64,000 nucleotides of DNA from Eledone cirrhosa (lineage: Eukaryota), in contig OZ024746.1 of assembly GCA_964016885.1 (NCBI GenBank), positions 22,630,001 through 22,694,000 of the forward strand. The letters are read 5' to 3'. Under the pieces are notes generated by a model. It did not search any database and was not told the DNA's origin. It worked only from the letters and a program-made list of their open reading frames with translations. Position numbers and translations under genes: made by a program. Shown piece after piece: positions 22,341-54,416 of the stretch (its first letter is position 1; each line of letters starts with the position of its first letter).

Positions 22341-23349
22341 GAAAGAATTGTGAGCAATTTGTAATGTTACTTTATACAACTGAATAAAACTTACATATAT
22401 ATAGGAAAGTACATGTCAAATTATGATAATTGTTAATGAGAAATTTTGTTATCATTGGGATAGGCAATGGATATATTGGAATTGAGACAATTAAATTCTC
22501 TATTCCATACATCTTTAGAAAGTGTAGATTGATAACATATGTATTAAATTCGACTTGTTCGAAATTTCCATTCTTGTGCTTCATGATAAAGATTTATAAC
22601 TAGTCTTCGGATAATGGGAGATAAATCCTCGGAAGGAATTTCTTGATACAGATTTATCCCCCTTGTTGAGCCTGACTTCCCCCCCTCCTTCTTTGTTTTT
22701 GTGTTTGTTATTTTTTCTCGCTCCCTTTTACTTTTCCTCTTTGTTTTTATTGTTTTTCTCTTTGCGTTTATTTACTCTTTCACTCTCTCTCTCTTCCTTT
22801 CTTTACCTTCTCTAGTTTTATTTGCCTTTTGTTCCCCGTCTCCTCTCACACACTTCGTTTTCTTATACCCCCCCTTCCTTTTCAGTATCTCTCTTTTCCC
22901 CACTCTTTCTTATCTATCTTTGTCTCTCTCTCGCTCCTTTACATCTGCCTCTCCTCCATATAATATACAGCGTGTGTATATATCCACGTGGTCTGCTCGA
23001 CCAATTAGAAAGCTGTATTGTCTCTTCCTCTTTCTCTCTTCTCAACGTCTTCCTCCCTTCTCATTCTCAGTGTCTTTTTCACTCCACTCTCTGCTCATTC
23101 TCCTTTCTTTGCTTATTGTATTTCTCCTTTCTCTCTTCTAATTGTCTTCCTCCTTCTCCAACTCTCTTTTCTAAATATCTTCCGCCCGCTTCTGAATGTC
23201 TCCCTCTCCCTACTAATTGTCTTCCTCACTCTCCCTCTCCTCAATACCTCCTTCCCTCACTCTTCTGAATGTCCCCTCTCCTCCCCTATAATGTCGTTAA
23301 TGAGACTGCCATGGTGCAGAAAGTGTGTTGTTGTTCCCTGCAGTGGATG

Positions 23350-23664
23350 AGAGGCTGGGGGTAGTTGATATAAAAGTCGGAACAAAACAAAACTGCAAGA
23401 GAAGAAAGGAGGGGGGAGCACGACGGCTACAATCTTACCCCCTCACACAACAGAACGAGGTTAACGCAACGAAATACTAATAACAATACTACTGGTGATA
23501 ATAATAACACAACTAACATTAATACTGGTGAAATTAAAAAGAAATATCTCTATTACGTCACCTGAATTGGCAATTTGTTGTTCTTAACACTTCTGGCTAC
23601 ATTCCGATGGCCGTGATGTTGCCAGCTACACCAACACTGTAGGATTTCTCACTTATTCGATTTT
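23350..23664 (+). promoter_or_regulatory. Candidate promoter and non-coding first exon of SGF29
   Basis: TE-poor, relatively CpG-rich stretch ending in the donor-like tttt|gtaagt (23665); CRE/ATF-like TTACGTCA at 23553-23560. The exon at 28999 has an acceptor, so an upstream exon is needed. Inference only. Confidence 0.45.
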
Positions 23665-28800: not shown

Positions 28801-29091
28801 CCTTGGTATTCATTTCCTCCTCATCATCTTTAGCTGTGTCTTTCTGGTCTTCCTCTTCCTCCCTCCACATTCATTTCCATCACTCCTCTCACCCAGTCAT
28901 TTCCTCAATGTTTGTTATATAAATGCTTTTCAAAGAATTATATTTGTATTTCACAATTGTTTTAAAGTTATATTAATTTGTTATATTTATCTTTACAGAG
29001 CTTTATCTGTGTTACAAGTCTACATTACAATGGCAGTTTAAATTCAATTTGTGACTGGCTGTGGCAAATCGAAGGAGGGTCATATGTAAAA

Positions 29092-29241
29092 ATGGGTCGT
29101 ACGAAGGCATCTGGCAATAGTAGCCATGCTAGCCACAACAGCAGTCCAAGTAACTCTGATCTTGGTTTAACTAATAGTACTGCTGAGATTAAGATGAAGG
29201 AAATACTCAAAGATTTGTATCATCTCATTATTCAAGTTCAG
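29092..29241 (+). CDS. SGF29: SGF29 coding exon 1 (exon starts at 28999 after ctttacag): MGRTKASG...KDLYHLIIQVQ
   Basis: Acceptor ends at 28998; start context aaaATGG; donor cag|gtaagt at 29241/29242; AEIKMKEILKDLYHLIIQVQ aligns to human ADSRIAELLTELHQLIKQTQ. Confidence 0.9.
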
Positions 29242-30661
29242 GTAAGTATATACTATATCTTTGTGAAGGCATGTAGCTTAGTGTTTAGAGAATTGGATTT
29301 GCAATCATGAAGTTGCAGGTTCAATTCCTGGACTAGGCAATGTGTTATGTCTGTGAGCAAAACACTTTATTTCATGTTTCTCTTTTTGGCAGGAGTTGGG
29401 ACTGGTAGATTATATCAGCAATGCAAAACCATTGGAAACATTGTTTTCTTGGTTCCCAACTTAGTAAGCGAATGAGGTCTTGGATCTTGTCAATTGATAT
29501 ATATGTCTTAAACTGCTTTTTTAACCCTTTCATGACCATATTTTTAATGAAATCCACTTCATTTTAATTAATTAATGAAGAATTTTGAGATTTACTAAAA
29601 GTATCAATTATTTCATTATTAAATTGTAACATGGTTTGTGTTAGGAAAGGCATCCAGCCGTAAAAACCAAGCCAAAATACAGATCTATATTGCTCATATT
29701 ATGAGCAAAATGTGGTCACCTGACCTGACTTACCTCATAACGGGACAACCTGTTTAACCAATGCAAGCCGGGAAGATGGACGTTAAACAATGTTGATGAT
29801 AATCTGGTATTTATAACTTATGGTTCATCATCATTTAAACAAATTTTATGTCCACTTTTCCAATGGTGGTATGAGTTGCTTGGGATATTTTGAGACTGTT
29901 TTACAGTTGGATACCCATTGTGATGCCAACCCTTTTTGTTGCTTCTTATGACAAGCAGGGATACAGTGTATCTATTCTAAAAGCAGGAATACACACTGCA
30001 TTAGGATTCTTATATAAAATTGTCTTGGAAGATTTTAATTTAAATAGAAACGCTTTAGAATAAAAGGTTTTGTTTCATAGAACCAGAGATTCTTTTGGAT
30101 GGGTTGATATTAAAAGGGTTAAACTGTATTCTTTAACCATTTTGATACCAAACTGCCCTTGTTTCTATGCTACAATGCTTTTTAGGTGCCACTTTAGCAT
30201 GCGATCTATCTGGTCGTTTACAAAACTAATATATTCACCTTTTGATTTCTTTGTAGGAGGAACGTGCTCGCGGTGAACACAATTTATCTAATATTTCTAA
30301 AACTCATGAAAGAATGCAACAAGAACAGCGAAGTAAGATTCCTCTAAATATTCTTCATTCTAATATATATATCTTCAAAATGTTTTTATCCATTCCTTCC
30401 TCTTCTCGTTCTCTTTCTATTTCATCTTTTATTTCTCATTCTATCTTCTGATAAAGCACTGTCTTTTTTCCTACTATGTCAAATGTTAAACTAGTATATT
30501 TCTTTATTGTATCGTCTGCTTTGTTATTTCTGTTTAATTTTTGCATGCATATAAAACAGTCTGTATATTGTAGAATGAAATTAAAACTGCAAAATCAAAT
30601 ATGTTGGTGGTGCAAGTACATATCATTCACATGTGAAAAATGTGGTTTTCTCTTTTCATAC

Positions 30662-32199: not shown

Positions 32200-35100
32200 A
32201 CAATGTTTTTGTGACTATTCTGTAGAGAATACACGTTGAACTGAATTAAACTACAAAATCAAGGTCATCTCATTCACATATGAAAAATGTTCTTTTCTCT
32301 TTTCATAAATTTGTATGCACTGATGTATACATTACAAAACACACGCACACATCTATTATATTGGTTAAGTGCCCAGTCCACGCTGTGAAGTGGTCGTTTT
32401 GGTGCCACAATAAAAGGCACCCAGTCCACACTGTAAATATGGTTGGTGTTTGGAAGGACATCCAACCATAGAAACCAAACCAAACCAAACCAAACCAGAC
32501 CCAACAGGTTGTGTGTGAGCAAGACAGTCATGTGATCTGACTTTTCTCACAATGGGACAACCCATCTAGCCCATGCTAGCATGAAAAAATGGACATTAAA
32601 TGGTGATGATGATGTATATATGTAAGCATTCTACAGAAAGATCCAAACTCCAAGGCAAGGTATTAAATTAGTCTTAGACTTAGATTCTTCCGCGCCGTTC
32701 GACACATCGAGCAGTACGTACTCGCCAACGGTCACGAACAGCGGCAACTTTTTCGAGACCGTGCCAGGTGATGTTGGCTGCCATCAGGTCCTTCCGGAAT
32801 GTACGTCGCCAGGTGATCCTTGGGCAACCCCGCTTCCGTTTATCGCCAGGCGGATTCCAGTTCATCGCTGTTTTCGAATGCCGTTCATTTGGCAGATGCA
32901 GAATATGGCCAGCCAGATGGCACCAACGATCCGTGACCACTCTCTGTTGGATCCACGATATTAAATAAGTGTATTATATTCTGACTTTATAGTCTTTACC
33001 TGGTTAATCTTCAGAATTTCTAGAAAATGCGTACAGATGATTACATTTTACACCTTGCCTTGAAGTGTTAGGCATTCTACAGAATACTTAGATATTCTAT
33101 ATCGTGTCAGGTTTCTCACTTTATATTCTCAACATATATACTAGGAGAAAACTGCCCAGAGAATGTTTCTACTAGTTGGAATATATTAACTTTTAACATC
33201 CTGTACTACATGAAACTGTATTAGCACGACAGTCTTGGAAAGTACAAAACAGTAAACATTATGACTGCTTCACATTAAAAATTGAAGTCTTTACTCTAAA
33301 TTTTCACAAGGACCTGTCCACTGATAAAAACAATAAATATTTGAATTAGCAAACCAGTTTTTAGATAGTTACTGCTAAATCATTACAGGACTGTAAGGGT
33401 TAAGACATATTTAACATTTATCCCCTGTAACTTGACTTGAAATTATTTGACTATTCAATCAAAGACTACATATTACTTTAGACTAACACTCCCCCTCTAC
33501 TTGTTATGATACTAGAAGTCAAGTAATTGTTCTTTCCTTTCTTTGCAGACAATCCTGTCACAACAAAAGGAGAAGCTAAAGCAGCATTAGCTATTTCATG
33601 TAAGTATTAGAACCTTTGGTGATAGAACAGTCTACATGGTGTGAAGAGGTCCTTCTTAACCTTGCACTCAACTAAACAACATCTCTACTGTTAGTGTGCA
33701 CCCAATACATTCTGTAGTGTGTTAGTAATGGTACCACAATAATATGCACTCAGTACACTATATAAAACGTGATAATGATGGTGCTATGATGAAATAGATC
33801 CAATATACTGCAAATGCATTTTGTAAAGTGGTAGGTATCGTGTCACAAAAAATGTACCTAGTACATGCTATAAAGTGATACTGCTGGTACCACAATAAAA
33901 TGTACCCAGTTCACTCAGCAAAGTAGTAATGCTGGTTCCACAATAAAATGCATCCAGTACACTTTGTAGAATGGAAGTGATTGTGCTACGACATTTCTAA
34001 AGTGGTAGTGATGGTGTCATAACAATAAAATGTATCCAGTCCACTATATAATGTTGTTTGTGTTATGAAGAGCATCCAGCTATGGAAACCATGTCAAAAT
34101 ATAAACTAAGATGTGATCCTCCTGTCTGTGACTTGGTCATGAAAACAGTTACATTGCCTGTGACCTGGTCATTGACACACTTTCACTGTCTGTGACCAGG
34201 TTACAGACAGTACTGAGAAAATGTTGACACCAGAAAATGAATGAATTTAACAGTTTTTGTGTTTGTGTTTTAATGGCTAAAGTGACTCCTCTACAGTGTA
34301 ATTATTTCGAAAACAACTATCACTATAGCTGGTTGGAGCTGCATTATATTGTACCTGTTAGTAACACTGATAACTACATTAGTTGCCTATATTTTCAGTT
34401 ACGCCTTACTACAAAAATAAATTACGAGGTTTATATAACACAGCCATGCAGGATGCTGAAGCAGAAGCTGAGTAAGTAATATTGTGCAAGTTTTTACTTA
34501 TTGTTTTTATATTTCTTATGACTATCTTGTGCAGGCTTATATATATATATATATAAGGGGCACATGGCTTAGTAGTTAGAGCATTGGCCTTGCAATCGAA
34601 AGGTTGTGAGTTCAATTCTCAGACCGAGTGATGTGTTGTTTCCTTGAGCAAGACACTTTATTTCACGTTGCTCCAGTTTACTCAGCTGTAGAAATGAGAT
34701 GATAGGGACTGGATCCCTATCATTCTACTGTAAAGTGGTCGTGGAGGTGCCACAGCAAAAAAGCACCCAGCACTCACTGTAAATGAGGTTGGTGTTAGGA
34801 AGGGCATCCAGCTGTAGAAATCAAGCCAGAATCGGTTCCCGTCCCACCCTTGCAAGCAGGGAAAAGTGGACGTAAAATGAAATGATGAAATGAATGATGA
34901 TAATGTAAATATATTGACTTGACTAATAACCCCTGATGCAAATTTGGGCTAAAATACCTGAACAGCGGGATCTCAAATAGATATTGTATCTATTTCAACA
35001 ATTATATCTTGAATAAAAACATAAATTAATTAGAACAATGAAATATTACATTACATTAGCAATATACAGTTATATATATATAAATGGAATAGAATGAAAC

Positions 35101-36645: not shown

Positions 36646-39343
36646 GCCGTGTAGGTAACACGGTAAAAACCTCCCAGTCCACACTGTAAACGTGGTTGGT
36701 GTTAGGAAGGGCATCCAGCCGTAGAAAACCCGCCAGACAGTCTTATACGAGCAAGACAACCAATCTTGCCTCAAGTGGGAAAATTCCCGTCCAAACCAAT
36801 TCTAGCGTGGAAGATGGACGTTAAACGATGATGATATATAATATGATTAAAATTTCATATATTTAACATGTACATGTGACTTTAGATATCAGGGTCCAGT
36901 TATAGCCACCACTGTATAGTGGAGGGGCTGTTTCAATGTCAGCCTCTCAGCGGGTGCCAAGACAAAAAGTCTCTTGCAATACATTGAACACACACACTCG
37001 TGTGAAGCTCGAATTTTCAAACTTATGTGGTGAGGATATATATTTGTAAGAAGATATGGGAAGCTTATTATCATTATTATAAGGGCGATGAATTGGCAGT
37101 ATCTGTAGAGTGTCGGACTACGGCCCTTTACGGTCTGAGCTTAAATCCTGCCATGGTTAACTTTGCCTTTCATCCTTATGAGGTTGATAAAATAAAGCAC
37201 CAGTAATGCACTATGGTCGATTTAATTGACCCCCCCCCCCCCCCCCAAAAAAAAAAATTGCTGGTCTTGTGCCTATAGTAGAAATCATTATGATTATTAT
37301 CTTTTCTAATTATTATTATTTATTTCTCTATTTTTCTCTCATGTCTTTTTAGGTTAGTTAGAAAAGCTTTAGATAAAATTTCTGAAATTAAATCTATACA
37401 AGAGAACCGGCGACTTGGAAAACTTGGTAATTTTATTGGTATTCTTTATTTCATTTGTTTATTTGTACATTTTTTTCAATCTTGAATATGTATATGTCTA
37501 TACTTGCATATAAGTCACACCTTTTTACACAAAAATACCATATGAAAATCCAGCATCTAACTTTTCTACTGGACTTACAAAACCTGAATTCAAAATATAT
37601 GGTACTTTTTAAATACAAACACATCTATCATTTTAAGGCCATCTTCCTTGCTAAAGCAGAGGTTAGCATTGCAGGCCCTCGTGGTAAGAAACTCTCAGGA
37701 GAGCTGGACAGCAGAAGTTCTTCAGAGAAAAAAAGCCTTCAAGCGAGTGTTTCAGTCCTTAGCTTCATATTTATTATAGGATCTTTTTTAAAGCTGTGTT
37801 TTATGGATGATCATCTTTCTGGTGCCAACCCTTTTAGTTCTGTGGTCGTGCCCTTGGCAGTTGAAACTTCTGGTATCCTTGGCCCTAGGGCTACCTCCCT
37901 ATTCACCACCATAGGCACTGTGAGCCTTGCGAGTTGGAATGGCTCTTCCAGCGCATCTCCCTTACCATCCTGTGGGGAGGCCAGCACGTGGGACCCCATT
38001 TGCTCACCATACGGATTAATAGGCAAAGTTATAAACTATTGTATGTATTCATTGTGGTCAGTAAATAATTACAAATTGTTACATACAGGAATGTGTATAT
38101 ATATCTATATATATATATATATACATACGGTACATTGTAAATGTATGTAAAATAAAGGTGCATCATATACACAAGTATATACAGTATATTATTTATGTAA
38201 TAGTTGTATAATGTTTTGTAAATAGATGTTAGTTTATTTTATACTAGCAGAGATACCCGGCGTTGCTCGGGTATTAAATAGCAGTTATGTATACCATTTA
38301 TGTCAATACTTCAGTGCTGCTTCGATAACTATACTTTTAAAAAAATCATCGGCTTTTTCCAAAAGGGGGTTCCTGCCCCAGGGGTCCCCTACTCAATATG
38401 TGCCAATTCTGAGAGTTCACATTTATCTGTAGAATAAACGTAGCCCTTGTGTCATGAAGTTATGACGTTTCAGTCGACTCCAAGGAAGTGGTTAGAGGGG
38501 GTTATCTGCCAGGAGCCTCTATAATCAATATCTGGAAAAATGAAAGTGACCATGGTACATAAGTAACCTATGTCTTAAGTTTGGTGAAAATACTGTAGAA
38601 ATGTGTAAAGTTCATACACACACACACACCACACACACATGCTTGTGTGTGCGTATGTATATGTATGTGTATGTCCGTCGGCGCATACGTATGTACTGGC
38701 CTAAATCTTTACTATTTTAAGGCAAAGTTAAAATCCCGTCGAGGTTAACTTTGCCTTTCATCATTACGGGATCGATAAAATAAAGTAGCAGTAATGTACT
38801 GGGTAATTGCTGGCCTTGTGCAAAAAGTAGAAACAACTATTTTAATAACCTCTGTCATTTTCGTTTACAATCTTATTTACATCATTCTTAAACTCCGGGG
38901 CTGGAAATCATTCGGTTATTTTAAATTAAATATTAGTCTAACGACTCCATTTACACCATAAACTTGGTCTCGTCTTTGCATGAAATTGTTCTTCTCGGTC
39001 CACATAACAACGTATTATCCTCGCTTTTTTTCCGTTCATTGTCAGGGAACGTCTTCACAAACCAAAATATCGTCTTCCTGTTTTCTTTCGGTTGCAATGT
39101 TTCTCGAAATATTGACTTCTGCGTTCACAGATTGAATTTATTAGTTTAAGAAGATCCCGTTAATGTTGAAAGCAGCGATTCTTTGCTTAAACTTTCTTTC
39201 TTTCTCAACCCTTCTCCCTTTTTTCTCCTACCCTCTCTCTCTCTCTCATACCCCCTCTCTCTCTCTTCCCCCCTCTCTCTCTCTCTTCCTCACTCATACC
39301 CCCTCTCTCTCTCTTCTACAGAATGGAGAACAATAAAGAACGT

Positions 39344-45160: not shown

Positions 45161-48100
45161 TACACACACACACAGAAATGTATATATGTTTCTGTAGCAC
45201 TCCTCAATTCCCCCCTCTCTCCCTCCCGCTATCCCCCTCTTGTAGTCTCTCTTTCTTTCACTCTCACTCTCTCACTACGCGTGCGCAAAAAACATTCGCA
45301 TGCGCGCACGTGTTTTAGTGTCTATTCGCTCTCTCTCTCTCTCTCCCTCCCGCTATCCCCCTCTCGTAGTCTCTCTTTCTTTCACTCTCTCTCTACGCGT
45401 GCGCAAAAAACATTCGCAAGCGCGCACGTGTTTCCACTGTCGGATAGACAAACAGAGAAATTGCTGGTTATATATTATAAGGAGATGATGTTAATAATAT
45501 AATTGGAATATAGCTCATAGATTGTAAGATAATGAATTGCAGAGGATGATGGGAATAGAGTCAGTGGCGAATATTGTGTGGTAAAATGGAATGAGATGGT
45601 TAAGTCATTTGTTGAGGAAGGGTGAGACAAATAGAACCAGTGATGAATGTTGTGTGGAAAAATGGAATGAAATGGTTGTGTTGAAGGATGAAAGAGACTG
45701 GTTGAGATGAATGATTGTGCAGTTTGTTAATCAGTGTCCGTGACTAGGTCGCAGATGGTGGGGTAATAATTTTCACACCAAGAAATAAGTGATTGATATG
45801 AAGTGAAGTTAAGTTTTTGTATTTTTAAGTAGTTAGAACAACTCTTCCAAGCAGTTTTAGTTTCAACACACAGTCACAGATCAAGTCATTTGCCAGACAT
45901 GTACAACTGGCTAAAATGATTGTTTTAGTTTCAACACACACTCGGTTCAAGTCATTTGCCAGACATGTACAACTGTGGCTAAAATGACTCTTCCATGATG
46001 TAATTGTTTTAGTTTCAACACACAGTCACAGATCAAGTCATTTGCCAGACATGTACAACTGGCTAAAATGATTCTTTCATGATGTAATTGTTTTAGTTTC
46101 AACACACACTCGGTTCAAGTCATTTGCCAGACAAGTACAACTGTGGCTAAAATGACTCTTCCATGATGTAATTGTTTTAGTTTCAACACACACTCGGTTC
46201 AAGTCATTTGCCAGACAAGTACAACTGTGTCTAAAAGGACTCTTCCATGATGTAATTGTTTTAGTTTCAACACACACTCGGTTCAAGTCATTTGCCAGAC
46301 AAGTACAACTGTGTCTAAAAGGACTCTTCCATGATGTAATTGTTTCAACACACACTCGGTTCAAGTCATTTGCCAGACATGTACAACTGTGGCTAAAATG
46401 ACTCTTCCATGATGTAATTGTTTTAGTTTCAACACAGTCACAGATCAAGTCACTTGCCAGACATGTGCAACTTGTTTCTTCTTTTGATTTTCAGATAGTG
46501 ACCGTCCCAAGCCAATTATTAGACGTGGTGTTCTAATGACAATGTTACAACAGAATGCTGTATCACTACCTCTGTGGGTTAGCAAACCTGGGGAAAAGTA
46601 AATATTTTATTCTTTTATTATTGTTGATTCCATACTTTGTTTTGCTGCTTATCTCTTTTGATACCAGGCTCCCTGAAACTGGTCTTGCTTCTATGGTACA
46701 CAACTGTGTTTTAACGTGTTTATATTTGTCTAAAATTCTTCCATCATAATTTTATGTCAAAACCTTTGTTAGGTTATGTTCCAAACATTAGTTTAATAAT
46801 GAGGTTAATTATATTACTAAATCCCTACAAATGATAGACATAAATATGGTATCAAAAGGGTTAAAGAATAGTGAAACCCCTCTATGTATTATAAGACAAT
46901 TGTCAGCTGATGTGGTGAATAATTAAATACCTTGCATTGTTCGTTCTGGTTCTCTGCATTCTGAGTGGAAAGTGGACGAATAAATGAATGCCTTTCTAGT
47001 GAGGGTGCCATGATAAAAATGCACTCAGTCAACATTGTAAGCCAGTTGTGCTGGAGTCACAATAACATTTTTCCAGTATGCATCGTAAAGTGGTTGGTGT
47101 TAGGAAGGGCATTGAGCCTTAGAAACCAATCCAAATATGGAACATATGCCTCAGAATATGACAACCTGTCTAACCCATGCAAGCATGGAAAATAGACATT
47201 AAACAGTGATGATGATGATGGTGATTGGATTCATATTTACAAACATTAAGAAAACCACCCTGTTAGGTGATCATTTCGGTGCCACGATAAAAACCAGCTA
47301 GTCTACACTGTAACATGTTTGGCATCTAGCTGTAGAGACCAAGTCAAAATTCAGATCCATATGTGCATGACTTGTCTCATAATGTGACAACCCATGTAAA
47401 CGTGGAAAACTGACGTTAAATGATGATGATAAATTTATCTCAGGATCATTGTTTGAGATGTAAAATGTTTGAAGGACTCGTAAAATTTCAACACTTTTTC
47501 ATGTTCAGTCATCAGTTGTTATTTGAAATTACTGTCTTTCTTAGATGGGATAGAGACCATGTTACCCTCATATATTACAGTGTCTCTGCTAATTCACTAA
47601 CCCATATTACAGAGTGTACTGGGTGCAATTTTTATCTTGACACTAGCACTAGTGAGTTTGTTTTCTGTTATACAAGACTAAAAACTATTTACTATTATTA
47701 TTATTATTATGAATTCAAATCCCGCCGAGGTTAGCTTTGCCTTTCATCCTTACGGGGGTCGATAAAATAAAGTACCAGTAACGCATTGGGATGGATTTAA
47801 TCGACTTCCCCCTTCCCTTCAAATTGCTGGCTATATGCCAAATGTTGAAAGAATTACTATTAGCATTTCATCAAAGATCAGTGGAGTAGGTGCCATAGTT
47901 AAAAGTAAAGTATGGGTTGGTATCAAGCAGGGTGTCTGGCCATAGAATATTGTAGATGAAACAAAAAGTCTTTGGAAAAGCAGACATAAAAATATGACTT
48001 AATATGTAGAAATCAGGATCAAACAATTTTTTTTTTCCTTTTTTATTATAACCAGTTAATAATATTGTATTTATAGCATGTCCCTCTTTGATTGTTTTAT

Positions 48101-51100
48101 AGGCCACCTCCACTGTGTGGAGCTGTCCCAGCAGACGCTAATTATGTGGGTAAAACGGGTGACAAGGTTGCTGCCAGAGTTAAAGGTCAGGATGGAGAAG
48201 AAGAGAATTGGATCCTGGCTGAAATTTCTTCCTATACTCCAGCTTCTGGTAAATATGAAGTCGATGATATTGATGCAGAAGAGAGCAATGAGTAAGTAAT
48301 ATTTGGAATAGTTTTTGTTCATGTATGTATGATAGCCTAAGATATCTATACTAGGAGAAACATATAAAGGGGAGGAGTGTGGCCTAGTGGTAAGTGTGTC
48401 AGACTTACAATGATAATGTTGTGGGTGCGATTTCTGGACTAGGTTGTGTGTTGTTCTTGAGCAAAACACTTCATTCCACATTGTTCCAGTATACTCAGCT
48501 GAAAATAAGTACCAGCAGTAGCTGGGGGTTTAACCCCATGACTTTGTCATTTAACGCCATGGCAACTGAGATGAGTACCAGCCTTATGAGCCTTGATTCA
48601 GACTTTAATCCCGTGATAGACTGGTGTTCTGACCTGTGAGGAGTCTTGTAATTTCAGTCACTTAATGCCATGGAAATGAGGATAAACACTGGCCTGATGA
48701 ACTTTCTGGCTTAAGACAGAGAGAATCACCTGAGATGATTTCCTGCAGGGCAGAATTTGTCCTAATATATTTTTGTAGTAAAATCTGATAATTGGCAGTG
48801 TCGGGCAACATGCTTTGTATAGCATATAGTTACATTCCTTTATGTTCTGAGTTCACATCCTACTGAGGTTTTATCCTCACAGCGTCGATAAAATAAAGTC
48901 CCAGTAATGCACTAGGGTTGTTTTTATTGGCCTTCCCCTCCCCCAAAATTGTCGGGGCTCATGCCTAAATCAGAAACCATTGTCATATATATATATACAG
49001 GTGGTGAATTGGCAGTGTCATTAGAGTAGTGGATTAAAGCTTCAGTAGCTGTTCTGGCTCTCTGAGTTCAAATCCTGTTGTGATCAACAAGACCAATGGG
49101 AACATAAATTCCTTGATCTGATGGTCTGCTCCTTTTAGTAAATCATTCAAAATTCAAAAGAAATTTTACTCTAAAAAGGTTAAAGTTTTTTCTAATTCTT
49201 CAAGAATAATTGGCATAGGGTAAGGTATAATGTTCCATAGTCTTACACAGACAATGGTTCTTCAGTGTTCATATTTATTGTATATTATATTTTGTTTACA
49301 GGAGACACTCTTTAAGTCGTAGGAGGATTGTACCGTTGCCAATATGGAAAGCAAATCCAGAAACTGACCCTGATGCCTTGTTCCCTAAAGAAACGGTGAG
49401 AAATCATATAATATCTCTCATGTAGAAAATCTTGATAATTTCTCAGTTTTGGGGATTAACACTAGGATAGTTCCATTAATATCTTGTAAGAAAACCTATT
49501 TAACTTATTTAAATGGAAATGGGGCACATCAACAAAAGAATCTTTTGCTTTGCAGACCTATCAAACACTGAAAGTTTTTTTCAATATATTTGATGTTATT
49601 TCATTTAGTTTGATATGCTCCATCCCCCACATGGCATATGCCTAGCCCACAGCCATCAACAACATTAATCTCACTGGTATCATGTGAAGACTATGGAAAC
49701 TGCCCTCTCAAGAGCATTTATCTCACTGGTATCAGAGGGGCTAGTGAAGGCTATGGGCACTGTCCCCTCCTACACCAACTATGTGGACTTTGTAAGCCAC
49801 AGTGCAGGCAACCAATTTACGAGAGTAGTCACTCTGAATAAATATGTCCACAGAGGGTAGACTTGGGCTCTGTAAGCCACAGTGAAGGAAGCCCATCTAG
49901 GAGAGCAGTCACTCTGAATAAAAACTGTATTTTGGCTTGGTTTCTATGGCTATTGCTCTTCCTAACACCAACCATATTACAGTGTGTACTGGGTACTTTT
50001 TATCGTAATGCTGAAGCAACCACTTTATTGGGTGAACTGGGTGCTTTTTGTCATGTCACCAGCACAACCACCTTACAGTGTGGACTAGTTGCTTTTTTTT
50101 CTTGTCACAATTACAATCACCTTACATATAGTTATTAGAAGTTATGTCCAGCTATTGACAATGAATTATTAATGGAATGAAATATTGTTGATATTCTTTG
50201 TATTATTATTATTTCATTTATTTTATTTTTGTTTTGTAGCTTGTGTTGGCCCTGTATCCACAGACTACATGCTTCTATCGTGCACTCATCCATGAACCAC
50301 CAAAAAGGGTACTGTTTATTTTGTTATCGTTAACTTTGCGAAGTTCTCACCATTAATAATAAATTATTGAACCCTTTCATTACCATATTTCTAATGAAAG
50401 ACACTTATAATTTTCAAATAATTTTAAAAATAAATAAGAATTTGGAGGGTTAAGTGATATAACTAAACTTCTCAGTATTTATCTGCTGTTTGGAACATAA
50501 AAATAAAATTATTATGTGAAGTTTATGAAAAATTGTGAATTTTTTTTTTTTAGATAAATATAGATACTTTAAACACTTTCATTATCATATTTCTAATGAA
50601 AGACTGCCTATGAGTTTCATTTAATATATAAAGTAATCAAATATTTGGAGGCATTTAATAAAATATAACTAACTTTTCATATTTATTAAGCTGATGTTTG
50701 GAACATAACAAAGGTTCTTAACTAAGATAGATGTCAATTTTTTTTGATAAACATAAATACTTCAAAATAAATAGTTTTGTATCTTATAATGAAGGACAGT
50801 TTCAGTAAGTCTGGGATGAAAAAATGTTAAAGTAGTAGAAATGAGAAATATATAAGGACAGCAAATATCTGACAGTTTATATTTTTGTACATTTAGACCT
50901 GAGTTCTAATCTTGTTAAGATTAGAATTTGTAAAGGACGTGACGACCTCCTTAGTGCTTGTCATCACCATCTAATATCCATTTTTCCACACTAGCATGAG
51001 TTATCCCATTGCGAGACAAACCAGATCAGATAACCATGACTGGCTCATATAGAAATGTTTCTTTCTTGGTTTCTGTAGATGGATGCCCTTCCTAATGCCA

Positions 51101-54255: not shown

Positions 54256-54416
54256 TGAGAACATTTCAAGTATTTTCTGTCTCTACTTATATTTTTCAGC
54301 CTCAAGATGATTACCAGGTATTATTTGAAGACACTTCTTATTCAGATGGTTACTCACCACCTTTAGGTGTTGCACAACGTTATGTTATTGCCTGCAAAGA
54401 AGAGAAGAGAAAATAG
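29092..54416 (+). CDS. SGF29: SAGA-associated factor 29 (tandem Tudor H3K4me2/3 reader); spliced CDS join(29092-29241,30257-30332,34399-34471,37353-37426,46495-46597,48103-48291,49302-49395,50240-50308,54300-54416), 314 aa
   Basis: Hand-spliced GT-AG exons are phase-consistent and total 945 nt. The translation is collinear with human SGF29 as I recall it: EERARGEHNL..KTHERMQ, PYYKNKLRGLY, RKALDKISEIKS, RRGVLMTMLQQ, PPPLCGA, GDKVAARVK, WILAE, YEVDDID, WKANPETDP, LVLALYPQTTCFYRALIH, PQDDYQVLFEDTSYSDGYSPPL.VAQRYV. Confidence 0.96.
30257..30332 (+). CDS. SGF29: SGF29 coding exon 2: EERARGEHNLSNISKTHERMQQEQR
   Basis: ttgtag acceptor, gtaag donor, homology. Confidence 0.95.
31266..31854. mobile_element. 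Long inverted repeat (arms of about 230 bp), probably derived from a Penelope-like element
   Basis: 31266-31498 is nearly the reverse complement of 31626-31854. Each arm has CTGAAGA-stem-GAAAC followed by AATAAA, as in PLE terminal repeats. Confidence 0.65.
32670..32960 (-). mobile_element. RTE-like LINE 3' fragment (different family)
   Basis: W..GHI..LP.ER..K.AM.W.P..KRKRG.PR.TWRR...DRWR. Confidence 0.75.
34399..34471 (+). CDS. SGF29: SGF29 coding exon 3: (I)TPYYKNKLRGLYNTAMQDAEAEA
   Basis: ttttcag acceptor, gtaagt donor, homology. Confidence 0.95.
34557..34900 (+). mobile_element. tRNA-headed CORE-like SINE with RTE-like tail; further copies or relatives near 2645-2888 (-), 13580-13970, 17170-17510, 48375-48710, 56975-57220 and 61768-61993
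   Basis: A box tggcttagtagtt, B box gagttcaattc, ccttgagcaagacactttatttcac core, tail ending ggacgtaaaatgatgat. Confidence 0.8.
35509..35839 (-). mobile_element. Same SINE family, inverted relative to the 34557 copy
   Basis: Reverse complement of 34560-34880 with scattered substitutions. Confidence 0.8.
37353..37426 (+). CDS. SGF29: SGF29 coding exon 4: (E)LVRKALDKISEIKSIQENRRLGKL
   Basis: tttttag acceptor, gtaatt donor, homology. Confidence 0.93.
37830..38000 (+). mobile_element. CRE-like RLE retrotransposon C-terminal fragment
   Basis: VPLAVETSGILGP...; shifted frame EPCELEWLFQRISLTI. Confidence 0.55.
38244..39348 (-). mobile_element. Non-autonomous Helitron (minus strand) containing a SINE fragment
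   Basis: Minus-strand 3' end: hairpin atacccg/cgggtat (38253-38274), then CTAG|T at 38244. The 5' TC at 39348 is tentative. Confidence 0.6.
39349..43589 (+). mobile_element. Helitron, Rep-only (helicase deleted), inside an SGF29 intron
   Basis: 3' end: hairpin ccgtcc-aat-ggacgg (43561-43575), then CTAG (43586-43589) followed by T. The candidate 5' A|TC at 39349 is less certain. Encodes a Rep ORF. Confidence 0.85.
40089..43430 (+). CDS. Helitron Rep (HUH-Y2 rolling-circle endonuclease) ORF without the Pif1 helicase; first ATG at 40227
   Basis: CVHCNA..W..E....CC zinc motif; YDALQYPL; LPSSYTGGPRYM; motif 1 DLFITFTCNPKW; motif 2 VEWQKRGLPHAH; motif 3 YICKYVHKG; LRLLL..KGPTSFEDLRTV. No Walker A seen. 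Confidence 0.9.
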   Translation: MNVRALQKAEQAELRRARNAASNSNSRALETVDQTATRLAADSQRKMCTYVFPRDSSCYWSKKGFQYNPQEDYASHPHIIIGSMSTVCVHCNAMRWPAESTGICCSNGMVTLPYLQVGAEPLNSLLLGDHPDSKHFFRNIRAYNSAFQMTSFGHTPIKDGNYMPTFKVQSQIYHQIGSLIPQDGKEHSFLQIYFMGNGPEEIARRASVAKGTTPSLLQPLQYMLHSINPYITIFKTALQRRDANNNQYKVVIRNDRAPPGQHQGCFNRPQTDEVAVIITRPHESASNRDIVIEWQDSHLQKINELHPAYDALQYPLLFPFGDDGYRIDLQKCNPVSLMHLTPEKSISQMEFYAFRLMFRKNDVNILHRTRMLLNQYCVDIFAKIDTECLQWIRHHQKELRSEEYGNLRDEVNRNDQANASDVGLSVILPSSYTGGPRYMHEKMQDALTYVRHCGRPDLFITFTCNPKWFDIQSHLLHGQNPSHRHDITSRVFHMKLIKMMNVLKYGQLFGPVRCFMYTVEWQKRGLPHAHILLWLQKKLMSTDVDSIISAELPNPQQDPSLFQIIKANMIHGPCGHLNPKSACMDNRRCTKRYPRKLINETKTGDDGYPSYRRRAPQEGGHMANITMLGGQDFTIDNRWVVPHNKVVCKMFSTHINVEFCNSVKAIQYICKYVHKGADRAVIELAKSDNPDAATDEVTCFQTGRYISSNEGFWRIFGFPIHEREPAVIHLSVHLENGQRVYFNQENMLDCARQPRRTTLTGFFEICTSDSFARTLLYAELPTFYTWNKSSRCWQRRKRGRISQRDALMRESDALSRVYTVHPLNSECFHLRLLLHVIKGPTSFEDLRTVNGHIWSTFKEACSKLGLLDNDDHALHEASMLQSPIALRKLFAVMLVYCSLGNPQSFWDKYRDSMCLDILMQSRFASTDMNLQFTHEMYNCGLIFLEDILLEMTGHPLKNYYMESPKRENEAVCNRHVLRETCYNAAKIDTECLQWIRHHQKELRSEEYGNLRDEVNRNDHANASDVGLSVILPSSYTGGPRYMHEKMQDALTYVHHCGRPDLFITFTCNPRWFDIQSHLLFVFRLLIKKITHCSTDTANDTFLYVHILMTHICK
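43725..44165 (-). mobile_element. CR1-type LINE 3' fragment (same family as 18390)
   Basis: LPYSERLASLGMDSLKLRR...WNKLP, near-identical to 18945-19270. Confidence 0.85.
44460..44967 (-). mobile_element. Non-autonomous Helitron (minus strand), 3' end degenerate
   Basis: The minus strand starts TCTATATATATAAAACTGAGGTTGTC, a typical Helitron 5' end. A degenerate hairpin with CTGG lies near 44498-44525. Confidence 0.6.
44968..45485 (-). mobile_element. Non-autonomous Helitron (minus strand) with an internal duplication of about 120 bp
   Basis: Minus-strand 5' A|TCTCCTTATAATATATAACC at 45485; 3' hairpin and CTAG at 44968; duplicated block at about 45215-45313 and 45338-45433. Confidence 0.6.
45845..46472. 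repeat. 84-bp tandem repeat (about 8 units, some shortened) next to an SGF29 acceptor
   Basis: Period 84 (46081 to 46165). Confidence 0.9.
46495..46597 (+). CDS. SGF29: SGF29 coding exon 5: (D)SDRPKPIIRRGVLMTMLQQNAVSLPLWVSKPGE
   Basis: ttttcag acceptor, gtaaat donor, homology. Confidence 0.94.
48103..48291 (+). CDS. SGF29: SGF29 coding exon 6 (Tudor 1): PPPLCGAVPADANYVGKTGDKVAARVK...YEVDDIDAEESN
   Basis: ttttatag acceptor, gtaagt donor, homology. Confidence 0.96.
49302..49395 (+). CDS. SGF29: SGF29 coding exon 7: RHSLSRRRIVPLPIWKANPETDPDALFPKET
   Basis: tttacag acceptor, gtgaga donor, homology. Confidence 0.95.
50240..50308 (+). CDS. SGF29: SGF29 coding exon 8 (Tudor 2): LVLALYPQTTCFYRALIHEPPKR
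   Basis: ttttgtag acceptor, gtactg donor, homology. Confidence 0.95.
53158..53765 (-). mobile_element. CR1-type LINE 3' fragment (same family)
   Basis: LETVLRRATK..LPYSERLASLG and the same 3' UTR. Confidence 0.85.
54300..54416 (+). CDS. SGF29: SGF29 last coding exon: PQDDYQVLFEDTSYSDGYSPPLGVAQRYVIACKEEKRK*
   Basis: tttttcag acceptor, TAG stop at 54414-54416, homology. Confidence 0.96.
   Translation, partial: PQDDYQVLFEDTSYSDGYSPPLGVAQRYVIACKEEKRK

Follow-up and report, generated by a model that had tools for sequence, protein, structure and literature searches.

The SGF29 gene of Eledone cirrhosa raises the question of whether a reader of the histone H3 tip may also carry, at its own N-terminus, a working copy of that tip. 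The gene lies on the forward strand of the window (the whole stretch of 64,000 nt analysed, positions 22,630,001 to 22,694,000 of contig OZ024746.1, assembly GCA_964016885.1), and all features given below are on this strand. Its coding sequence opens at 29092–29106 with ATG GGT CGT ACG AAG, in the context aaaATGG. The encoded M-G-R-T-K would leave G1-R2-T3-K4 after the predicted removal of Met, in the register of A1-R2-T3-K4 of H3; in what follows, positions are counted from this Gly and residues from the initiator Met. Work on SGF29 has been carried out almost entirely in yeast and vertebrates, both of which are without this tail.

The start of translation can be placed on a spliced transcript. 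A contig of 1,680 nt from run X4 joins 23258–23664 to 28999–29241 and the latter to 30257–30332, with GT..AG at the joint between 23664 and 28999; it is one contig from one study, and the run, whose library type is not on record, was counted as RNA because its contig is spliced. Exon 1 (23258–23664), the first base of which is the mere beginning of the contig and thus a boundary of the observed leader only, is non-coding in this transcript and contains seven upstream ATGs together with a TGA in the SGF29 frame at 23614–23616, which is followed by 47 sense codons without ATG up to 29092. With this stop in the spliced upstream exon, no in-frame ATG precedes that at 29092, so that translation from the first in-frame ATG of the one spliced leader observed gives M-G-R-T-K, as the preliminary description of the locus had read from the exon. 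The 47 codons are open in the SGF29 frame, and near-cognate starts within them, or other first exons, are possible. Exon 2 (28999–29241, supported by the spliced contig and the gene model) supplies 93 nt of leader and then codons 1–50. Over its 500 nt (23258–23664 plus 28999–29091), the leader carries nine upstream ATGs, each closed by a stop ahead of the main ATG; among them are M-A-V-stop in the strong context acaATGG (29030–29041) and the start-stop frame ATG TAA (29084–29089), two bases ahead of the main ATG. Such a leader may possibly serve translational control. A start at the second Met, M35 (29194–29196), was rejected, as this residue is unconserved and falls inside modelled helix 1 (residues 26–76), which agrees with the earlier preference for the upstream start. 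In fact, M35 is not a general start, because 13 of the 21 motif-bearing genera have no second Met ahead of the conserved KTHER stretch of helix 1.

Downstream of this start, the gene model comprises ten coding exons between 29092 and 54416, with GT-AG at all borders, and encodes 331 aa, differing in one residue from the SGF29 of Octopus vulgaris/sinensis (P0006). In a search of the 3.0-Gb genome, the SGF29 Tudor was found at one locus and exon 2 matched once. Helix 1 continues in the exon at 30257–30332, which is also in the spliced contig, and helix 2 is encoded by the exons at 34399–34471 and 37353–37426; helix 3 and the lead-in to the Tudor pair come from 46495–46597. Between helices 1 and 2, a 51-nt exon (33549–33599; spliced contig, gene model and comparison) encodes a 17-residue insert present in Octopus and Argonauta, missing in the squid-like P0007 and in most molluscs, and matched in place by shorter inserts in Haliotis and Helobdella. 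The SGF29 tandem Tudor profile (PF07039) gives two exon matches above the cut-off, and the protein aligns to PDB 3ME9 with an E of 4e-94. The Tudor 1 exon (48103–48291) encodes D231 and D233, the aligned counterparts of human D194 and D196, which have a role in the H3 A1 pocket. After an exon lying between the two barrels (49302–49395), the Tudor 2 exon (50240–50308) provides Y276 and Y283, and the last coding exon (54300–54416), which ends in the basic C-terminus KEEKRK, provides F302 and D304; these correspond to Y238, Y245, F264 and D266, the aromatic cage of human SGF29 (PMC4589357, in excerpt). The three motifs on which the preliminary description had relied (YEVDDID, LYPQTTCFY and LFED) are all present, and the cage Y276/Y283/F302/D304 and the acidic A1 pocket D231/D233 are, to judge from the alignment, intact. 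An AlphaFold2 model based on a 38-sequence alignment has residues 1–24 disordered (pLDDT <50), helices at 26–76, 95–141 and 152–163, and the tandem Tudor; the tail is undocked in this single-chain model, which retains Met1 and has no methyl-lysine. The octopus protein thus shares with its orthologue SGF29/CCDC101 (PF07039, PDB 3ME9) the N-terminal helices, the tandem Tudor and all pocket residues, and differs from it by a 30-residue N-terminal extension that is missing in the vertebrate protein of the metazoan structures found.

Comparison across animals, with one row per named genus, indicates how far this extension is kept. Of the 25 mollusc genera with a name, 20 have an exact M-G-R-x-K start, and one more has it behind a double Met. 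Counted as M-small-R-x-K, the exact start is present in cephalopods (2/2 genera), bivalves (12/12) and non-heterobranch gastropods (6/7, the seventh, Gigantopelta, having the motif behind a double Met, MMGRNK), and is lacking in heterobranchs (0/3) and the chiton (0/1). Annelids have it in two of four genera; in Capitella, whose model is longer, MGRPK stands at residue 93, and the annelid Owenia and Lingula begin MRKAK and MRHK, respectively. No exact start was found among the brachiopod and nemertean (0/3), ambulacrarian (0/5), chordate (0/6), arthropod (0/7) or cnidarian (0/2) genera. The tail is missing in vertebrates, most arthropods, two nemerteans and one chiton, where the Tudor motifs are alike; vertebrate SGF29 begins MALVSAD, in line with the earlier remark that the tail has no human counterpart. 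A scan of 79 metagenome loci gave no clear mollusc transcript. Two of 67 distant cluster representatives of at least 250 aa also match the pattern. The distant SGF29 P0226 begins MGRSKQT, extending the H3 match to positions 5 and 6.

In the 41-row mollusc clade (99% SH-aLRT support, in a quick tree where 15 of the 83 rows retained their tails), 29 rows begin MGRxK, two have this motif behind an upstream Met, seven read M[G/P]RxxK and three are without motif. For two of these last three, a relative that is identical or clusters with them begins MGRTK, which suggests that their start was called too far downstream. The seven M[G/P]RxxK rows form one heterobranch clade nested in gastropods in both trees, each a quick version and the second built from the core only. 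As a side observation, the heterobranch proteins P0011, P0018, P0019, P0026, P0030, P0034 and P0070 combine the shifted Lys with a long Lys/Glu/Ser/Asp-rich tail and a long stem branch. Across the 25 named mollusc genera, Arg occupies residue 3 in 24 and Lys residue 5 in 21, with Arg never at residue 5. The 57 fetched proteins that have both R3 and K5, which are related rows, carry Gly (53), Arg (three) or Pro (one) at residue 2, and never Ala or Ser; Gly, rarely Pro, stands at position 1 wherever Met removal is expected. Position 3 is freer, being T in 37, S in 7, V in 3, P in 2, I in 2, L in 1 and N in 1 of 53 fetched rows that are related and partly redundant. The expectation of an invariant M[GA]RTK in front of a diverging linker was largely borne out: cephalopods and bivalves, most gastropods and several annelids do have M-G-R-x-K with a diverging linker behind it, but RTK itself is not invariant, as position 3 takes any of the seven residues just listed, Ala is absent, and the heterobranch Lys is shifted by one.

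The linker was described beforehand as Ser/Asn-rich, and so it is at residues 6–30 (29107–29181), which are mostly predicted to be disordered and are conserved in neither sequence nor length. Across mollusc classes its identity is 0.31, versus 0.25 for shuffled sequence and 0.77 for the core (113 pairs, without Dreissena and Capitella); it measures 19–45 aa in 22 genera and is made mainly of Ser, Gly, Thr and Ala. The motif itself scores 0.86 in this comparison, an inflated value, and the genus counts were preferred to it because the rows were picked for having the motif. In many mollusc linkers a Ser-Pro dipeptide lies 8–17 residues ahead of helix 1, possibly a site for a proline-directed kinase. 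The motif, kept in front of a drifting linker, is therefore likely to be a working docking signal. Its retention since the divergence of the mollusc classes, over 500 million years ago, points to a lineage-specific control of SAGA/ATAC.

A docking signal of this kind would have to present a free amino end. Removal of Met before Gly, leaving a free alpha-amine on G1, is to be expected from established rules. In HeLa cells, N-termini beginning with Gly (0/10 acetylated) or Pro (0/68) are unacetylated, and those beginning with Ala are 95% acetylated (PMC3131286, in excerpt). The restriction to Gly and Pro starts fits selection for a free amine, the Gly sample being small, and the N-acetylation or myristoylation once feared as a block of the Gly is unlikely under published substrate rules.

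We give about an even chance to the proposal that the SGF29 tip is an H3-tip-like docking motif read by a reader of the H3 N-terminus, because four residues suffice for several such readers. In this proposal, the first five residues of SGF29 in molluscs and many annelids would mimic the H3 tip on a disordered leash and would dock in a pocket that recognizes Arg2, Lys4 and the free amino end of H3. Tethered in or near the acetyltransferase module of SAGA/ATAC, the tail would then compete weakly with H3, and this competition might raise the threshold for nucleosome engagement or hold the reader in place. For example, Sgf29 has been reported to require essentially only ARTKme3 (PMC4589357, in excerpt, citing Pieters 2013), and the ZZ domain of ZZZ3, an ATAC subunit, engages the first four residues of H3 and the free amine of A1 regardless of methylation, with K4 acetylation improving binding somewhat (PMC6138639, in excerpt). 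Another example is the PHD of UHRF1, which binds VRTK of PAF15 like H3, mutation of the K mattering little; here an unmethylated x-R-T-K tip substitutes for H3 with a Kd of 2.2 uM, versus 1.5 uM for H3 (PMC7060239, in excerpt). PAF15 resembles H3 over a longer part of the tail and is a ubiquitylation substrate (PMC7060239, in excerpt), whereas in SGF29 the likeness ends at position 4. The subunits found beside SGF29 in ATAC include ZZZ3 and WDR5 (PMC11439848, PMC13631227, both in excerpt). Within the docking proposal, we tentatively favor a reader that needs no methylation, with a ZZ, PHD or WD40 pocket (e.g., ZZZ3-ZZ or WDR5 in ATAC), as more likely than SGF29's own Tudor pair acting after K4 methylation. 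A search of the species' own genome with the Pfam ZZ profile gave at least eight matches, and none of the seven viewed looked, by eye, like ZZZ3.

The tip also falls within a pattern already defined in human proteins. The definition of the H3 N-terminal mimicry proteins (H3TMs; Chen et al. 2021) is iM-Z-R-x-K, with Z being A, G, S, C, T, P or V, and the pattern occurs at 48 of 20,996 human N-termini, where it is enriched in chromatin proteins (PMC8166343). MGRTK fits this sequence definition, and the predicted disorder of the N-terminus (pLDDT <50, residues 1–24) fits it as well. Like VRK1, PCLAF, HIVEP1, MEF2C and BCL11B, SGF29 has iMet-small-R-x-K on the disordered tail of a chromatin protein (PMC8166343), and its GRTK is as near to ARTK as are VRTK of PCLAF or PRTK of HIVEP1. 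On the other hand, the pattern by itself says little, because the human list also has members without a chromatin role, such as aquaporin 3 and sucrase-isomaltase (PMC8166343). The 48 do not include human SGF29, and no H3K4me2/3 reader was seen among those of Table S1, the nearest being the acetyltransferase KAT7 (PMC8166343). In SGF29, by contrast, the protein that bears the mimic is itself a reader of that sequence, and the mimic is limited to some invertebrate lineages. Internal copies of a histone ligand have been described for other chromatin proteins, namely the BAZ2B linker (PMC5663869, in excerpt) and ARKT of G9a (as described in PMC8166343), whereas the SGF29 copy is at the true N-terminus, where pockets of the SGF29 type need a free amine. 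In the open-access literature, no description of the mollusc SGF29 N-terminus was found, nor, among the matches listed, of the tail in connection with a histone mimic, autoinhibition or non-histone ligands of SGF29. The tail is real and conserved, and has apparently gone undescribed. Strict mimicry is opposed by the fact that Ala, which H3 has here and which a single base change would give, is never found, that Pro is tolerated at position 3, and that 7 of the 41 mollusc-clade rows, all from one heterobranch group, carry M-[G/P]-R-x-x-K, off the H3 register.

A narrower form of the docking proposal holds that an H3K4 methyltransferase methylates K4 and that the tail then folds into its own Tudor pair, auto-inhibiting it, or bridges two SGF29 molecules. 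This form is doubtful, because it requires K4 methylation and Chen et al. found no direct in-vivo K4me3 on any of the human mimics (PMC8166343). A basic targeting signal, or another reader that takes the H3 tip unmethylated, would account for the conservation at least as well. In its favor, the A1-pocket and cage residues are intact, ARTKme3 alone is needed for binding (PMC4589357, in excerpt), G1, R2 and K4 are fixed, and the leash has at least 19 residues. In addition, all three human mimic peptides tested with Set7/9 in vitro became methylated, and a mass spectrometry report exists of K4me1 on VRK1 (PMC8166343). However, MLL1 and PRDM9 were active on VRK1 alone, and SPIN1 is the sole Tudor binder named, SGF29/CCDC101 going unmentioned in the main text (PMC8166343); the heterobranchs are off register, yet their pocket motifs are unaltered save for DDID to DDVD. 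On H3 A1G with SGF29, nothing was found in the open-access literature. With the same reserve, SGF29 of molluscs and many annelids might be said to carry its own ligand, an old basic tip having been tuned into a free-amine G-R-x-K for methylation by H3K4 methyltransferases, which would thereby also close the reader, as a self-limiting feedback switch on acetyltransferase recruitment. If this were true, the enzymes that mark promoters would also shut SGF29, by a switch lacking in vertebrates and flies. The H3-mimic idea, which stands without in-vivo proof of K4 trimethylation, would gain in SGF29 a case with evolutionary support, for which heterobranch snails and starfish are natural negative controls.

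The strongest alternative, which we hold possible on present evidence, though less probable than a docking motif, is that the tip is an ancestral basic patch serving nuclear import, or contact with DNA or the nucleosome acidic patch, and that the R-x-K match to H3 is fortuitous. Starfish begin MRRTK or MRRAK, amphioxus MRRGR and anemones MRRSR, all, like Owenia and Lingula, with a basic tip at the same place that should keep its Met, and M-R-R-x-K/R also occurs in some metagenome transcripts; the basic residues of echinoderms, amphioxus and cnidarians are kept off the H3 register, as are the shifted heterobranch Lys and, in one clade, an SRRTK that lies some way behind the start. A tip of the M-R-R-x-K/R type, with its Met retained, should find no entry to a pocket that fits A1 of H3. 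Because such tips occupy the same place in other phyla, it seems that the basic patch came first and the mimic later, and the simplest history we infer is that a basic tip was present early, disappeared in vertebrates and most arthropods, and gained the H3 register in molluscs and many annelids; this history depends on an incompletely resolved tree. Against a purely basic role, mere charge would neither fix Gly1 nor bar exchange of R and K, and the protein already has a C-terminal basic run, common to tail-less orthologues. Two basic residues also make a weak nuclear import signal. Even so, the human M-G-R-x-K proteins ZNF207, NOL12 and ELOF1 open with plain basic runs (PMC8166343).

It is rather improbable that the tip governs the turnover or synthesis of SGF29, as a Gly/Pro N-degron of the unassembled subunit or through a constraint on the first codons. 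Gly and Pro N-termini each have dedicated N-degron pathways, and the Met-cleaved starts are solely Gly and Pro; the nine upstream ATGs of the leader likewise suggest translational control. However, the fixed Lys at position 4 would be left unexplained, and the G at Kozak +4 equally permits Ala, Val, Asp and Glu codons. Functionless chance resemblance, against which the preliminary description had cautioned, is very improbable: the match is of just four residues and is missing from many animal groups, but three mollusc classes and annelids keep it while the adjoining linker approaches shuffled identity, and on this conservation chance was rejected as largely refuted. A site of N-myristoylation or N-terminal methylation, suggested by the Gly left N-terminal after Met removal, is scarcely credible, as myristoylation wants a small residue at position 4, here Lys, and NTMT1 an X-Pro-Lys type start with Lys or Arg at position 3, here G-R-T (PMC4692089, in excerpt), and heterobranchs have Pro in place of the Gly. 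Finally, in P0142, P0190, P0195, P0132 and P0275, which include oyster and limpet models, an in-frame Met lies about 20–35 residues upstream of MGRxK and, if used, would give an isoform with a buried motif.
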